A DNA stretch of 64,000 nucleotides from Oscillospiraceae bacterium (GCA_015064125.1 SVSV01000001.1:3357-67356); one strand, 5' to 3'. Shown: positions 23,203 to 38,896, counted from the first letter of the stretch. Program-made: numbers and translations. The notes: a model not told the origin generated them from the letters alone.

Positions 23203-24132
23203 TTACTCTCCTGTTACAAGTCCTGTGGCCTCATCGGTGCCGAGCAGGATATTCATATTTTGTATAGCCGCGCCCGAGGCGCCCTTGCCAAGATTATCAA
23301 AGCGTGCCACCAGCAAAATGCGCTCGTCGTTACCAAGCACACCGATTTCCATATCGTCACGCCCTGCCATGCCGTTTCCGGCAAGCAGTCCCCCCTCACC
23401 CATAGTGGGCGAGTAGCGCACCAGTCCCTTTTGGTAGGTTTCACGATACACCGCCGCGATCTCGGCGGCGCCCCCTCTTACCGCGTCGGCAAACAGCGGG
23501 ACGGTTACCTCCATACCTGCGTAATAGTCAGCCACGATCGGGGAAAAGATGGGCGCCACGTCAAGGCCGCATACCGCCTGCATCTCGGGCAGGTGCTTGT
23601 GCTTTTGCGTGAGCGCATACTGACGGGGCGCCTCAAGCGCCGCGGCGCGGCCCTCGCCCTCATATTCAGCGATCATTTTTTTGCCGCCCCCCGAATAGCC
23701 CGTGAGGGAAAAGGCACAAAGATGTGCATCCCTCTTGAGAAGCCCTGCCCTGATAAGCGGTGCCACAAGCGCAATAAATCCACTGGCATGACAGCCGGGA
23801 TTTGCCACACGCTTGGCTGCGGCCAGCGCCGCACGGTCCTCGCAAAGCTCGGGAAAGCCGTAGATCCATCCGTCTGCCGTGCGATGCGCGGTAGAGGTGT
23901 CAATGACAGCGGTATTAGGATTTTCGATCATCGCCACCGCCTCGCGGGCGGCATCGTCAGGCAAGCATAAAAATGCCACGTCGGCACGATTCAAGGCCTC
24001 ACGGCGCGCGGCACTGTCCTTGCGCTTGTCCTCGGGCAAAATCAGCAGCTCTATGTCGCTTCTCGCGGCCAAGCGCTCGCGTATGCGCAAGCCCGTGGTA
24101 CCCGCACTGCCGTCAATAAATACTTTCTTCAC
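23203..24132 (-). CDS. argC: N-acetyl-gamma-glutamyl-phosphate reductase (short type)
   Basis: FIDGSAGTTGLRI and the active-site region NPGCHASG. Length is 309 aa. Confidence 0.9.
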   Translation of the reverse strand: MKKVFIDGSAGTTGLRIRERLAARSDIELLILPEDKRKDSAARREALNRADVAFLCLPDDAAREAVAMIENPNTAVIDTSTAHRTADGWIYGFPELCEDRAALAAAKRVANPGCHASGFIALVAPLIRAGLLKRDAHLCAFSLTGYSGGGKKMIAEYEGEGRAAALEAPRQYALTQKHKHLPEMQAVCGLDVAPIFSPIVADYYAGMEVTVPLFADAVRGGAAEIAAVYRETYQKGLVRYSPTMGEGGLLAGNGMAGRDDMEIGVLGNDERILLVARFDNLGKGASGAAIQNMNILLGTDEATGLVTGE

Positions 24133-24149
24133 GACGAATCCTTTCGGAA

Positions 24150-24188
24150 TTTGGAATTTTACTCATTGTTATTGAATATTTATTCACA
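24150..24188. promoter_or_regulatory. tandem ARG boxes (ArgR operator) in the argC leader
   Basis: ATTGAATATTTATTCACA (24171-24188) has 1 mismatch to TNTGAATWWWWATTCANW. TTTGGAATTTTACTCATT (24150-24167) has 3 mismatches. The two boxes are separated by 3 bp. Confidence 0.7.
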
Positions 24189-24207
24189 ACAACAAACATA
24201 TACAATT

Positions 24208-24236
24208 ATTATACTCGCTTTGTGCAGCTTTGTCAA
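24208..24236 (-). promoter_or_regulatory. consensus sigma-A promoter of argCJBDF
   Basis: On the minus strand: TTGACA (24236-24231), 17 nt, TATAAT (24213-24208). Confidence 0.8.
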
Positions 24237-24387
24237 GCACTATAATAAAATAAATATATAAATAAGTACTTTTCTTTTCAGTATTCTTTCTTCTTACATT
24301 TTTTCTGTATTTTTATTTACTGATTTTGTATGTTTTTTCAAAGCAAAGATAAGATCATTTGTATCGCAATAAAAATGTCAAATATAG

Positions 24388-24416
24388 TTGACATTTCGCT
24401 TCCTACGCGATATAAT
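24388..24416 (+). promoter_or_regulatory. consensus promoter of the XRE / membrane-protein pair
   Basis: TTGACA (24388-24393), 17 nt, TATAAT (24411-24416). Confidence 0.8.
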
Positions 24417-24446
24417 GGAGTTAAGCAAATATACAGGAGGACGCCT

Positions 24447-24641
24447 GTGGAAGAAAACAAGGAAATGCGAACCGCGCGCCAAAGATTAGGCTTGTCACAA
24501 GGTGAATTGGCGCGGCTGGTCGGTGTATCACGCCAAACGATCAACATGATAGAAAACGGTGGGTATAACCCCACCATTCTGCTGTGCCTGCGCATTTGTC
24601 ACACTCTGCAGGTAACATTAAACGATATTTTTTGGAGGTAA
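24447..24641 (+). CDS. small XRE-family HTH transcriptional regulator (~64 aa)
   Basis: GTG 24447 has AGGAGG 6 nt upstream. LGLSQGELARLVGVSRQTINMIENGGYNP is a Cro/C1-type HTH. Confidence 0.8.
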   Translation: MEENKEMRTARQRLGLSQGELARLVGVSRQTINMIENGGYNPTILLCLRICHTLQVTLNDIFWR

Positions 24642-24644
24642 GTT

Positions 24645-26003
24645 ATGTTTTTTGATGAACGAATCGAGCAAGAACGTGGGAAGATCACGCGTAACACCAT
24701 GCTGATTGGCACAATATGCGCCCTGCTTTGTGGCATACTGCGTGCACTGAATATTGCTGTAAATATGGACCATATTCATTCATATTCTAAGCTCTATTAC
24801 TTCTTACCCCTCGGTTTTGAAGCGGCTATTGCTATCACGGGAGCGCTAACGCTTCTCATTGGAATCATCCTTGCGCATGTTTCTCCACATGATGAATACG
24901 GCAAGGCTCAGTGCACTGCCTATTACAGCCGTGCAGGGCAATTAGTGCTTTACATAGCCTTGATAGCCTTCGCGCTTTTCGAGCCCTTATCCTTGTTGCT
25001 TACTACAAACATAAATTTTCAAGGCATCGGCACCGAGCACGTTGCCTTGCACCTGTTCTTGTTATTAAGCACCTACCTCGCTTTTTCCTTTAAACGACAC
25101 AGTATTTATTTTAATTATTCTATTTTAGAAGCACCGCAGTATAAAAAAGCTGTTTTAAGGAATCTCGGCAAATTAGGAGTCGGTGTCCTTGTTGGGTTAG
25201 GTCTGTCCTTGTTTGCTGCCGCTTGCGGCGGTTGGCTTTTGCGCTCCTCACGCACGATCGGGATTATGCAGATCTGCCTGATTTTATGGAGCGTGCTCTT
25301 CGTGCTTTTTTCCATTACGTACGCGCTGCTTTCCCTGTTAGAATATCTTTCTTTTTATAAAAAGCAATTGCTTTCAGGCGCCCCGCTGCTAACGCTCTAT
25401 TTTGTGCTTTTTTTGCGCGGCTCCTATACGGTGATCTCTGCGCTGATCGTGAAAAGCAATCAAACTATGGTAGCACAGCTGATGACACTGAATTATTTTG
25501 CCTTTTTGCCACTTTGCGCCGGTTTTTGGCTCGTGCTGTTTTTGCTCTATTATCACCATGAGTACTATACCGCCACCAAGGATCGCCTTTTCCACGTTGG
25601 CTTGATCCTCATGCTGCTGGCAGAAGCACTTGGTAGCTTTAGCGACTTTGTGCTCACACTGATACAAACCATACTTTTGCCAAAGCATCTTACCGATATT
25701 TCGCTTCATCTTTTATTTGCTGACCTCAATCTCTGGCTGTTACTACTTACACACCTTGTGTTTCTAATCGGCTTTGCACTCGTGATAGCGGGTCCTGTAC
25801 GGAAAGCACACGCCCCAAAAGGGTATTTGTGGGGTGCCGTTATGATGGTTGTGCTCACCTTGACCCTTGAGTTCTTGTTTAACACACAATATTACGGCAC
25901 ATGGCAATATCTTGTAAACAGCCTTACTTGGCTTTTACTGTATGCCTATTTATTCTGCTTCCTGCTCTTGCTTTCGCGGCGATTGACTGCAATGGAATAT
26001 TAA
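24645..26003 (+). CDS. polytopic (~12 TM) membrane protein of unknown function
   Basis: It starts 3 nt after the XRE gene's stop codon. I counted 12 hydrophobic helices by eye. The N-terminal FFDERIEQERGK... recalls the membrane partners of small XRE regulators (DUF2178-like), but this protein is much longer. Confidence 0.7.
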   Translation: MFFDERIEQERGKITRNTMLIGTICALLCGILRALNIAVNMDHIHSYSKLYYFLPLGFEAAIAITGALTLLIGIILAHVSPHDEYGKAQCTAYYSRAGQLVLYIALIAFALFEPLSLLLTTNINFQGIGTEHVALHLFLLLSTYLAFSFKRHSIYFNYSILEAPQYKKAVLRNLGKLGVGVLVGLGLSLFAAACGGWLLRSSRTIGIMQICLILWSVLFVLFSITYALLSLLEYLSFYKKQLLSGAPLLTLYFVLFLRGSYTVISALIVKSNQTMVAQLMTLNYFAFLPLCAGFWLVLFLLYYHHEYYTATKDRLFHVGLILMLLAEALGSFSDFVLTLIQTILLPKHLTDISLHLLFADLNLWLLLLTHLVFLIGFALVIAGPVRKAHAPKGYLWGAVMMVVLTLTLEFLFNTQYYGTWQYLVNSLTWLLLYAYLFCFLLLLSRRLTAMEY

Positions 26004-26015
26004 AAAAAAACAACA

Positions 26016-26047
26016 AAAAGCCCGAAGCGCATGCTTCGGGCTTTTTG
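26016..26047. terminator. bidirectional terminator between the membrane-protein gene and ridA
   Basis: AAAAGCCCGAAGC-gcat-GCTTCGGGCTTTTT. Confidence 0.85.
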
Positions 26048-26067
26048 TATCAATGGGAAATTTCTTA

Positions 26068-33124: not shown

Positions 33125-34789
33125 TTATACCGTAAGGATCGCGCCCTTGTCAGCGGAAGACACCAGCTTTGCGTAACGGGCAAGATATCCGGTCTTCACC
33201 TTTGGCTCGGGTGCCACCCAGGCGGCACGGCGAGCGGCCAGCTCCCCGTCATCGACCAGGAGCCTGATGCTGCATTCCTTGATGTTGATGGCAATGCGGT
33301 CGCCCTCCTGCACCAGTGCAATGTTACCGCCTGCGGCAGCCTCGGGGCTGACGTGACCGATCGATGCGCCACGGGTCGCACCCGAAAAGCGGCCGTCGGT
33401 GATCAATGCCACGCTCTCACCAAGGCCCATGCCGCAAATAGCGGAGGTGGGATTCAGCATCTCACGCATGCCCGGGCCACCCTTGGGGCCCTCGTAACGG
33501 ATCACGACCACGTCACCCGCCACGATCTTGCCTGCATAAATGGCAGCAATCGCCTCATCCTCCGAGTCAAATACACGGGCAGGGCCCTCGTGCACCATCA
33601 TTTCAGGCGCCACGGCCGACTGCTTTACCACGCACCCGTCGGGTGCAAGATTGCCCTTCAGAACGGCAATGCCGCCGTTTTCGGAATAGGGGTTATCGAT
33701 CGGGCGAATGATCGCGGTGTCGCGGTTCACCACGCCCTCAAGATTTTCAGCAAGCGTTTTACCCGTAACCGTCATCACAGAGGTGTCAAGCAGCTGCTTT
33801 TTGGTCAGCTCCTTCATCACGGCCCACACACCGCCTGCGCGGTCAAGGTCCTCCATATAGGTGTCGCCTGCGGGGGCAAGATGGCAAAGGTTCGGGGTCT
33901 GCTGGCTGATGGCGTTAGACATATCAAGACTGATCTCAACCCCTGCCTCGTGTGCGATGGCAGGCAGATGAAGCATCGTGTTGGTCGAGCAGCCGAGCGC
34001 CATATCCACGGTTTCGGCATTATGGAAGGCCGCCTCTGTCATGATGTCACGCGGACGGATATTTTTCTCGATCAGCTCCATGATCTTCATGCCTGCGTGC
34101 TTGGCAAGGCGGATACGGGCAGAAAGGGGCGCGGGCACCGTGCCGTTGCCCGAAAGTGCCATGCCGATGGCCTCGGTAAGGCAGTTCATGGAGTTGGCGG
34201 TATACATGCCCGAGCAGGAGCCGCAGCTGGGGCAGGCGTTTTCGGTATAATCCCTTACCTGCTCCTCATCGATCGTACCTGCCTTGTAGGCGCCAACCGC
34301 CTCAAACATGTGGCTCAGACACGTGCGGCGACCGTCCTGCAGACGGCCTGCCAGCATCGGGCCACCCGAGCAGAAGATAGTGGGAATATTGAGGCGTGCC
34401 GCAGCCATCAAAAGGCCCGGTACGTTTTTGTCGCAGTTGGGGATCATTACAAGGCCGTCAAACTGGTGCGCGGTGACCATCGCCTCGGTAGAATCAGCGA
34501 TCAGGTCACGCGTCACAAGCGAATACTTCATGCCTACGTGCCCCATGGCGATCCCGTCGCAAACAGCGATCGCAGGAAACATGATGGGCGTGCCGCCTGC
34601 GGCACGGATACCCGCCTTTACGGCCTCAGCGATCTTATCAAGATGCATATGCCCGGGTACGATCTCATTATGAGAGCAGACCACGCCCACAAGCGGCTGT
34701 GCCAGCTCCTCATCGGTGTAGCCAAGCGCATACAGAAGACTGCGGTTCGGGGTGCGTTCAACGCCCTTTTTGATCTGGTCGGAATTCAT
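33125..34789 (-). CDS. ilvD: dihydroxy-acid dehydratase
   Basis: Start is ATG 34789 (MNSDQIKKG...) with GGAGG upstream. Contains [24 protein letters not shown] and [12 protein letters not shown]. Confidence 0.95.
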
Positions 34790-34892
34790 TTTAAAAAACC
34801 TCCGTGAGGAAAAATTTTGTGAAAACAGATTTTCTCTTGGAATATCGCTTGTCATACAAACGGTATTGCAGCAAAAAATCTATTAAGCCGCA

Positions 34893-35296
34893 CAAAGCTA
34901 CCCAAGGCGGTGCAGATGTGGATGCGGAGTGCCACTGCGTGGGGCGACGGTGTAGTAACACTCTGTGCCCTGTAGCAAGGGATACTATACTCCAAATATA
35001 CCCAAGGCGGTGCAGATTTCTCCAAATATGCCCAAGGCGGTGCAGATTTGGATGCAGAGCGCCGCTGCGTGGGGCGACGGTGTAGTAAACACTCTGAGCC
35101 CTGTAGCAAGGGATACTATACTCCAAATATACCCAAGGCGGTGCAGATTTCTCCAAATATGCCCAAGGCGGTGCAGATTTCTCCAAATATGCCCAAGGCG
35201 GTGCAGATTTGGATGCAGAGCGCCGCTGCGTGGGGCGACGGTGTAGTAACTACTCCGAGCCCCACGCAGGGGATGCTATGCGCCAAATATGCCCGT
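34893..35296. repeat. nested direct-repeat array in the ilvC-ilvD spacer (30-bp unit A x5 plus 2 partial; ~70-bp unit B x3)
   Basis: Unit A is CTCCAAATAT[A/G]CCCAAGGCGGTGCAGATTT at 34990, 35020, 35121, 35151 and 35181. Unit B is at 34920-34989, 35050-35120 and 35211-35280. The order is A'B / AAB / AAAB / A''. Confidence 0.95.
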
Positions 35297-35297
35297 C

Positions 35298-36852
<1,555 letters not shown>

Positions 36853-38576: not shown

Positions 38577-38595
38577 CGTCAAACCCTCCTATGGG

Positions 38596-38638
38596 AAAAT
38601 AAAAACCCTACGTTCTGAAAGTTCAGACCGTAAGGTTT
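38596..38638 (-). terminator. intrinsic terminator (attenuator) immediately upstream of the ilvB RBS
   Basis: RNA sequence is AAACCUUACGGUCUGA-ACUU-UCAGAACGUAGGGUUU, a 16-position stem with 1 mismatch and 1 G-U pair, followed by UUAUUUU. It ends 5 nt before AGGAGG. Confidence 0.8.
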
Positions 38639-38702
38639 ACATTCAAAATCTTTCACAACCATTTTACAAGCAGGATATTTTTATCTTCTTACTCCTGTCC
38701 TG

Positions 38703-38834
38703 TCAAACAGCTGAGGTTTTGTAAAACCGGGCGCAACTTTCAGCACTATTCTGGTCAGCCACAACGACTAGCGAAATTAGACCTAGAATAGCGCCCACAA
38801 TGGCTATATTGATCACACAAGCGATAGTAGCCAT
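38703..38834 (-). CDS. candidate ilv-leu leader peptide (43 aa, Ile/Val/Leu-rich)
   Basis: GAGGTG lies 6 nt before ATG 38834. The peptide is MATIACVINIAIVGAILGLISLVVVADQNSAESCARFYKTSAV. It sits between a consensus promoter and the terminator. All Leu codons are CUA and one Ile codon is AUA. Confidence 0.5.
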   Translation of the reverse strand: MATIACVINIAIVGAILGLISLVVVADQNSAESCARFYKTSAV

Positions 38835-38867
38835 GCTGCACCTCACGTTTAATAATAATATGTTGCT

Positions 38868-38896
38868 ATTATAACACGGTGCCCATCTGCTGTCAA
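38868..38896 (-). promoter_or_regulatory. consensus sigma-A promoter of the ilv-leu operon
   Basis: On the minus strand: TTGACA (38896-38891), 17 nt, TATAAT (38873-38868). Confidence 0.8.

Follow-up and report, generated by a model that had tools for sequence, protein, structure and literature searches.

A tandem array of extragenic palindromic repeats between ilvC and ilvD in a clostridial ilv-leu operon

The ilvC-ilvD spacer and its transcription unit

What is a spacer of 508 nt, most of it filled with repeats, doing inside an operon whose neighbouring junctions overlap or measure only 2-19 nt? The question is raised by the ilv-leu region of the 64-kb stretch of DNA that was analysed here (the window). 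All genes of this region lie on the minus strand, with ilvB, ilvN and ilvC upstream of the spacer and the block ilvD-leuA-leuC-leuD-leuB downstream of it, the latter being followed by genes for a class IV aminotransferase and a PLP-dependent enzyme. The gene that precedes the spacer, ilvC (35298..36317, minus strand), encodes ketol-acid reductoisomerase (NCBIfam NF004017, E=4e-161). Its start was reassigned to the ATG at 36317, which has an AAGGAG ribosome-binding site ahead of it, and this 339-aa protein also appears among public gene calls; its stop codon is the TAA at 35300-35298. The gene that follows the spacer, ilvD (33125..34789, minus strand), encodes dihydroxy-acid dehydratase (NCBIfam NF002068, E=3e-252).

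A sequence-only reading of this DNA had placed a nested repeat array at 34893-35296 and had offered two explanations for it, a structured RNA element or an expansion of the REP or MITE type. All repeat coordinates and sequences were recovered by exact matching and with Tandem Repeats Finder, and the second explanation comes closer to our findings, except that the target-site duplication of a MITE was not seen. We assign a probability of about 0.5 to the reading developed below, in which the array is a lineage-specific, low-copy, tandem-prone extragenic palindromic repeat of the REP/BIME/BOX kind that probably stabilises the mRNA as a 3′ stem-loop or serves as a processing element.

The ilvBNC-ilvD-leu transcription unit carries a consensus promoter, a leader peptide and a terminator upstream of ilvB. 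Canonical terminators composed of an A-tract, a stem and a T-tract are common elsewhere in the window. On the transcribed (minus) strand between 34500 and 35600 no terminator-like site was found, in keeping with the earlier view that the array is not a canonical terminator, and the idea of an intrinsic terminator within the array was set aside because no U-tract follows any of the repeat units. As the array is located inside this transcription unit and the spacer holds no terminator, the repeats must be made as RNA.

The region ahead of ilvB has several features of its own. A perfect TTGACA-17-TGnTATAAT promoter is present at 38896-38868 (minus strand), followed by a leader ORF at 38834-38703 (minus strand; 43 aa, rich in Ile, Val, Leu and Ala, MATIACVINIAIVGAILGLISLVVVADQ...) and by an intrinsic terminator at ~38636-38592 (minus strand). 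The small leader ORF is called in most relatives, and the leader region has no Rfam match. Taken together, the segment from 38592 to 38896 looks like a site of ribosome-mediated attenuation rather than a T-box, and a comparable leader is the ilv-leu leader peptide of S. aureus (PMC5794164). Between the arg and ilv-leu clusters, a stretch of low GC content at ~24000-26050 (0.43 versus about 0.55) contains genes for a protein of the HTH_3 type (24330-24641) and for one of 452 aa without a Pfam match (24645-26003), and may be an acquired island.

Anatomy of the array and of the distal spacer

The earlier description divided the array into 30-bp A units and B units of about 70 bp arranged in a 1-2-3 pattern. 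Five exact 30-mers do begin at 34990, 35020, 35121, 35151 and 35181, where shuffled sequences are expected to give 0. A 17-nt core occurs six times, including a copy at 34901-34917, the B core occurs three times, the inverted repeat of 11-14 nt in the third B copy is present, and the periods detected by Tandem Repeats Finder are 30 and 131. However, this parse hides the real unit. Reading along the transcript (minus strand) reveals the natural unit to be an imperfect palindrome of ~100 nt, which consists, in order, of GCATATTTGG, ~14 nt, the 5′ arm of a stem, an apical hairpin (GGAGTAGTTACTACACC), the 3′ arm of the stem, another ~14 nt, CCAAATCTGC and the linker ACCGCCTTGG. The termini of the unit are conserved and inverted (GCAT[A/C]TTT[G/T]G ... 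C[A/C]AAA[T/C]CTGC), and the sequence of the central stem, which is capped by a small apical hairpin (GTAGTTACTAC), varies yet stays complementary. The 10-nt linker folds back to pair with the region around the stop codon of the preceding gene. The 30-bp A unit is thus a 3′ terminus, a linker and the next 5′ terminus, which is to say a unit junction that lacks the central 70 nt.

Three full units can be recognized in the array. Unit 1 (35193..35301, minus strand), which scores 112.5 bits with R1, a covariance model built from the units, is an intact hairpin of ~100 nt with a stem of type W. Its base is a helix in which the stop-codon region UAAGACGG pairs with the linker ACCGCCUUGG, and its central stem comprises 11-14 bp (CTGCGTGGGGC/GCCCCACGCAG); folded with its flanks, it reaches a minimum free energy of -61 kcal/mol (z=-6.4), with the ilvC stop codon inside the helix. 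It is followed by three tandem 30-nt mini-units (35121..35210, minus strand), which are exact 30-mers (Tandem Repeats Finder period 30, 3.0 copies) made of the 3′ terminus AAATCTGC, the linker, the 5′ terminus and AG, and which hold small alternative hairpins. Unit 2 (35030..35133, minus strand; 90.4 bits with R1) is a hybrid that folds at -32.8 kcal/mol, compared with -51.6 kcal/mol for unit 1. Two further tandem 30-nt mini-units (34990..35049, minus strand), again exact 30-mers and reported by Tandem Repeats Finder, lead to unit 3 (34900..35002, minus strand; 75.7 bits with R1), a second hybrid that folds at -27.8 kcal/mol and ends in a degenerate terminus and linker containing the core at 34901-34917. 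In both hybrids the 3′ arm matches unit 1 exactly and the 5′ arm is of another stem type (Y-like in unit 2), so that their main stems are broken. The spacer as a whole folds at -181 kcal/mol (z=-4.3). The 1-2-3 order of the junction copies holds for the window; it recurs in no relative and is probably incidental.

Several classes of element can be put aside on the basis of this anatomy. The units abut without unique spacers, which confirms the earlier statement that the array is not a CRISPR. Open reading frames that cross the array were said merely to translate the repeat, and this is supported; the public protein data contain spurious ORF calls across the array, and a protein search with one of these ORFs returned 3 matches, all of them from ilvC-ilvD spacers. 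The ORFs differ in frame between relatives because the units measure ~100-103 nt, and a coding function was therefore rejected. Searches against Rfam 15 gave 0 matches at the gathering score over the whole window, and at E<=10 the region yields only chance resemblance to miRNA precursors (at most 21 bits, where 71 are needed). A tRNA/tmRNA search found none.

The spacer extends beyond the array, and a further long hairpin at 34824-34884 (minus strand) that the earlier description had missed belongs to it. This terminal hairpin is an inverted repeat with 29-nt arms that are 76% complementary, in which an arm with a U-tract (AGAUUUUUUGCUGCAAUACCG) pairs with an A-rich arm (CGAUAUUCCAAGAGAAAAUCUG; AGAGAAAAUCUG). 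It ends ~35 nt short of the ilvD start, has arms similar to the termini of the units, and is present in nearly every related locus. An alignment of nine loci (A2) predicts 26 pairs for it, 7 of them with compensatory changes, and judged from its sequence it may determine processing or stabilise a 5′ end. The stretch from this last hairpin to ilvD (34799..34827, minus strand) stands out by its invariant columns in A2 and includes the ilvD ribosome-binding site, GGAGG, at 34799-34803. It also includes a CodY-box-like 15-mer at 34813-34827, the sole match to AATTTTCWGAAAATT with no more than 3 mismatches in the window, where 1.8 are expected by chance. With its 3 mismatches and its overlap with the 3′ arm of the covarying terminal hairpin, this match may be incidental.

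An alternative that draws on these features is that the spacer is an insulator combined with an internal regulatory region, in which the hairpins pause or partly terminate transcription of ilvBNC, while ilvD-leu is re-initiated or regulated from the distal spacer by a promoter made from the repeats or by the CodY-box-like site. The T variant of the 30-mer (GGGTATATTTGG) indeed creates sigma-70-like TGGAGA-18-TATATT sequences directed towards ilvD at 35126-35155 and 34995-35024 (minus strand), so that two such sites lie on the transcribed strand inside the array where 0.9 are expected. The distal spacer is conserved and is where the only CodY-box-like match of the window falls, and cellulolytic clostridia are known to use internal terminators for setting stoichiometry (PMC9045158). 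Nevertheless, we regard this explanation as quite improbable. The units lack the U-tract, the promoter-like sites require an A/G variant that is specific to this strain and absent from the relatives, and one or two CodY-like matches of this quality, in this case overlapping a hairpin arm, would be found by chance.

Conservation, covariation and dispersal of the units

Starting from the IlvC protein, we collected nine more distinct loci for ilvC-ilvD (10 in all) whose nucleotide sequence is 82-89% identical to that of the window; they come from metagenomes and MAGs annotated as Clostridia. Homologous units are located directly 3′ of the ilvC stop codon in all nine. The comparison of copy number that the sequence-only reading had suggested reveals 1-4 full units per related locus in spacers of 182-568 nt, with the first unit intact in every locus. 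One of these loci has four units in which two stem types alternate, and the closest distinct relative (L061) has a single unit whose stem type is unlike that of the window. At 77% identity (L053) only a simple 11-bp hairpin follows ilvC, and at 71% identity nothing recognizable does. Duplications of the 30-nt junction are confined to this strain, which deprives the proposal that the A array acts as a protein-binding decoy of its support.

The differences in copy number and unit type between relatives fit the expansion, recent or ongoing, that had been suspected from the window, and they fit contraction as well. The best explanation is that the array has grown and shrunk by slippage or unequal recombination, which produced the 30-nt junction-only copies and the hybrid units. 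The identical array occurs in a sole second assembly (L001), which is 100% identical over 4612 nt; this assembly probably represents the same population, and the exact copy number therefore rests on short-read assembly. Contigs from several independent assemblies (L046, L054, L057, L063 and also L001) end inside arrays or a few bases from them. Such contig ends, together with disagreeing assemblies of a second locus described below, indicate that arrays break or confuse short-read assembly, and copy numbers should be treated with caution.

The copies form strong hairpins, and pairing within the units is preserved across species by compensatory changes. In an alignment of 19 units (A1) whose consensus is a long hairpin, 93.8% of the cells form standard pairs when the structure is held fixed, compared with 86.5% after column shuffles and 29-47% when the partners are slid by 1-3 columns. 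Nine pairs (38 cells) change on both sides and are still paired; columns 19/78, for example, are AU in 14 units and GC in 4. The main stem is built from at least four unrelated paired sequences (CTGCGTGGGGC/GCCCCACGCAG, CCTCGCGGC/GCCGCGAGG, CCAACCAAGGC/GCCTTGGTTGG and CCGTGCAGGGC/GCTCTGCCCGG). When units are folded with their flanks, the ilvC stop codon lies in a helix in five species (-49 to -61 kcal/mol, z -3.7 to -6.7), and between ilvC species the pairing of the stop region with the linker shows a compensatory change of AAGGC/GCCTT versus AAGAC/GTCTT. The A-C mismatches in columns 31-34 of A1 come from units 2 and 3 of the window. Since these two units have broken stems, not every copy can be under structural selection. 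Identity of the units to those of relatives is 0.65-0.77, versus 0.56-0.65 at four-fold degenerate sites of ilvC, and because this is only slightly higher the constraint on the units must be weak.

The strand on which the structure is favoured offers little guidance. In 20 of 23 units the fold of the opposite strand is more stable by 5-12 kcal/mol, mainly because one or two conserved A-C juxtapositions become G-U on that strand, and for this reason the G-U evidence does not favour the mRNA strand. A more stable bottom strand is also a property of sites for single-stranded DNA recombination, such as integron attC or the hairpin ends of HUH or tyrosine transposases, which are recognized as a folded bottom strand. 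The units share with attC conserved inverted ends, a variable palindromic centre and a length of 90-110 nt, here starting 0-8 nt after the stop codon; moreover, unit types are swapped between relatives, and GCCTAAC in some types matches the RYYYAAC core. Even so, we give this possibility only a very slight chance. The window units (GCATAGC ... GCTCTGC) lack the AAC/GTT core, which is replaced by AGC/GCT, and a compensatory A-T to G-C change falls in the triplet that, in an attC site, would be the invariant point of cleavage. The units are not separated by cassette ORFs, no integrase or transposase came to light in the ORFs that were checked, and the host locus is a conserved biosynthetic operon.

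Whether the repeat is unique to this locus or belongs to a dispersed family was judged by searches at several scales, and neither description fits completely. No copies of the A or B units exist elsewhere in the window, and R1 detected no copies outside ilvC-ilvD spacers in 154,626 bases comprising the window and the related ilvC flanks. A family with 100 copies per ~2.5-Mb genome would have given about five extra copies in the sequence searched, which makes a high-copy REP-like family unlikely. In 185,579 species-representative genomes the A core does not occur as a repeat; 40 matches to its 19-nt form (CCCAAGGCGGTGCAGATKT) were dismissed as chance, all being single and inside coding sequence. 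These matches (L002-L041) are spread over many unrelated genomes and encode, for example, ...TSGTTSQ-PKAVQI... in AMP-binding enzymes of rumen Clostridia, and they advise caution with scans that use short patterns. Viral contigs gave 0 matches to the repeat.

A scan of metagenome contigs at the level of the whole unit uncovered two clear members of the family outside ilvC-ilvD. In one of them, at least four units follow glgP directly in a head-to-tail array, of which only the first has its 5′ arm intact, which is also the situation in the window. A second glgP assembly (a 68-kb contig) also ends inside the array, and its arrangement differs downstream of unit 1. The other member consists of two units after gdh (glutamate dehydrogenase); they are situated between the stop codon and a canonical terminator and are therefore part of a 3′ UTR. 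At both loci the units are in sense orientation and start 0-3 nt after the stop codon, which is again enclosed in a helix (UGA at glgP, UAG at gdh). Across the ilvC, glgP and gdh loci, folds that include the flanks give -34 to -61 kcal/mol (z -2.9 to -6.8), and the sense orientation at all three is evident from R1 scores of ~110 bits, versus ~40 bits antisense.

Three other items emerged from these contigs. Two hits of the scan (L059 and L060) lie in a coding region and were rejected as chance. A weak candidate (L058, 846-939; 23.8 bits with R1) has the conserved termini within a larger palindrome, on a contig without recognizable genes. In the organism with the glgP array, the 950-nt intergenic region between asd and glgB (L063, 3041-3986) is packed with GC-rich hairpins and short palindromes whose sequence is unrelated to the family.

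Three properties of the units are unusual: their ends are conserved and their stems vary freely, they are anchored to the stop codons of three unrelated genes, and their arrays run strictly head-to-tail. It is conceivable, although we think it rather unlikely, that they define a class of stop-codon-anchored 3′-UTR elements in uncultured rumen and gut Clostridia. The base of such an element would be melted by the terminating ribosome, so that termination in highly expressed metabolic genes (ilvC, gdh and glgP) would be coupled to mRNA cleavage or decay; alternatively, the elements would be recognized by a dedicated nuclease or recombinase. Tandem arrays would then offer alternative 3′ arms for one 5′ arm.

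The main rival of our reading, and a serious one, explains the array as palindromic DNA that is neutral or selfish. By this account a low-copy MITE- or REPIN-like element, or a minisatellite, inserted into or arose from a short hairpin after ilvC and gains and loses copies by replication slippage, complementarity was kept at the DNA level through hairpin-templated repair or gene conversion, and any effect on the RNA is incidental. Complementarity of arms can persist in palindromic DNA by hairpin-templated repair without a function for the RNA. Much of the evidence given above is compatible with such an origin, including the fast turnover of unit number and type between relatives, the hybrid units with broken stems, the 30-nt junction duplications restricted to this strain, the near-neutral divergence of sequence, and a G-U pattern that shows no strand preference while the more stable fold is that of the antisense strand. 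Unrelated loci carry related elements, several assemblies break at arrays, and the flanks of each locus make up a short palindrome, the pattern that insertion into a pre-existing hairpin would leave.

Other observations fit this account poorly. The units do possess terminal inverted repeats (GCATATTTGG/CCAAATCTGC, 9/10 bases), but a MITE was rejected because the flanks are complementary and not directly repeated at 3/3 loci; no direct target-site duplication was seen at the three. No transposase, integrase or RAYT gene was found among the 27 window ORFs scanned, all of which are biosynthetic or housekeeping, and no additional copies turned up in ~155 kb. Furthermore, the element has been kept at one locus across species of ~83% identity, it is in sense orientation and anchored to the stop codon at 3/3 loci, and its first unit is intact everywhere. 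On balance, we treat neutral palindromic DNA as possible and rate it as a tentative explanation.

Proposed role and relation to known systems

If the array is indeed a palindromic repeat with a role in the mRNA, its probable action can be outlined as follows. The hairpin anchored on the ilvC stop codon, at -50 to -60 kcal/mol, would form a 3′ stem-loop barrier. Endonucleolytic cleavage in the spacer could be carried out by RNase Y, which is encoded within the window, and RNase III could also act on helices of ~40 bp. After cleavage, the hairpin would shield the ilvBNC segment from 3′-to-5′ exonucleases and the conserved last hairpin would mark the 5′ end of the ilvD-leu segment, leaving the two halves of the operon with different stability, an outcome termed 'selective RNA processing and stabilisation' (SRPS). 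The extra units would be largely redundant by-products of an unstable palindromic array; copy number varies freely (1-4 units) between relatives, which argues against a dosage-sensitive function. Processing and stabilisation of the ilvBNC/ilvD-leu mRNA is what we infer from this analysis, and ilvBNC may plausibly be decoupled from ilvD-leu.

There are precedents for the individual steps. REP hairpins stabilise the upstream malE mRNA at malE-malF, protecting it from 3′ exonucleases. For the ilv-leu operon of Bacillus, Mader and colleagues reportedly found in 2004 a stable ilvC-specific processing product, and ilvC is said to be the segment that is stabilised. A later article that cites Mader 2004 describes mRNA processing as a means of fine-tuning the expression of ilv-leu in B. 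subtilis (PMC6123439). In Clostridium, transcript stoichiometry within operons is set by stem-loops located in the 3′ UTRs of genes (PMC4423207, PMC8219983).

If the hairpins do set the ratio of ilvBNC to ilvD-leu mRNA, the locus would be a natural case in which a repeat family has been recruited for operon stoichiometry in Clostridia. Copy number would then be an evolvable dial, and REP-like biology would extend to a Firmicute lineage known only from metagenomes. In practical terms, the arrays break short-read assemblies and give rise to spurious ORF calls in public protein databases.

Among known repeat families, the REP, BIME and REPIN sequences of Enterobacteria and Pseudomonas (PMC3116915, PMC3184786) resemble the array in being extragenic imperfect palindromes in 3′ UTR or intercistronic positions that are co-transcribed with their neighbours, in being often clustered, and, for REPINs, in forming hairpins of ~100 nt. 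The units described here are likewise imperfect palindromes in extragenic, co-transcribed positions, with hairpins of -50 to -61 kcal/mol between ilvC and ilvD, after glgP, and ahead of the gdh terminator. However, REPs number hundreds per genome and BIME clusters alternate in orientation, whereas here all units are head-to-tail and the tens to hundreds of dispersed copies typical of REPs are replaced by zero extra copies in the 154,626 bases searched and two or three family matches in the metagenome scan. The two also differ in that the array has no sequence similarity to these families, the 64-kb window shows no RAYT gene, and in the array it is the central stem that is hypervariable and the ends that are conserved. 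According to Liang, Rudd and Deutscher in 2015, REPs near stop codons reportedly interfere with termination.

The pneumococcal BOX (boxA-boxB(n)-boxC) and RUP/SPRITE elements (PMC3049150) provide a Firmicute parallel, as they are intergenic and modular, have variable internal modules and stable hairpins, and are transcribed with neighbouring genes. In the present family the number of units ranges from 1 to 4 and junction-only copies exist; what repeats, however, is the whole unit, and three loci are known. BOX elements are dispersed in more than 100 copies per genome and are built from other modules, in contrast to one array locus per 64 kb and a unit anchored to the stop codon. Correia/NEMIS elements of Neisseria and ERIC/IRU are inverted-repeat elements of 100-150 nt that are co-transcribed with genes and whose long hairpins either undergo cleavage by RNase III or change the stability of the mRNA. 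They are MITEs with TA target duplications, present in hundreds of copies and not in head-to-tail arrays. The array is like them in its inverted repeats and its co-transcription, and unlike them in copy number and in its head-to-tail arrangement.

For the probable mode of action, the closest match is found in the SRPS stem-loops of the Clostridium cip-cel operon (PMC4423207, PMC8219983, PMC10311766), together with the processing of the ilv-leu mRNA in B. subtilis (Mader 2004, as cited in PMC6123439). SRPS stem-loops are single and locus-specific, and unlike the array they are neither a repeated family nor tandemly amplified. What the two have in common is a stable stem-loop directly after a cistron inside an operon. 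In the SRPS systems, a stem-loop at the 3′ end of the upstream cistron, a processing site and a downstream 5′ structure result in unequal transcript levels, and the ilvC-anchored hairpin, a putative processing site in the spacer and the terminal hairpin before ilvD could give the ilv-leu operon the same arrangement.
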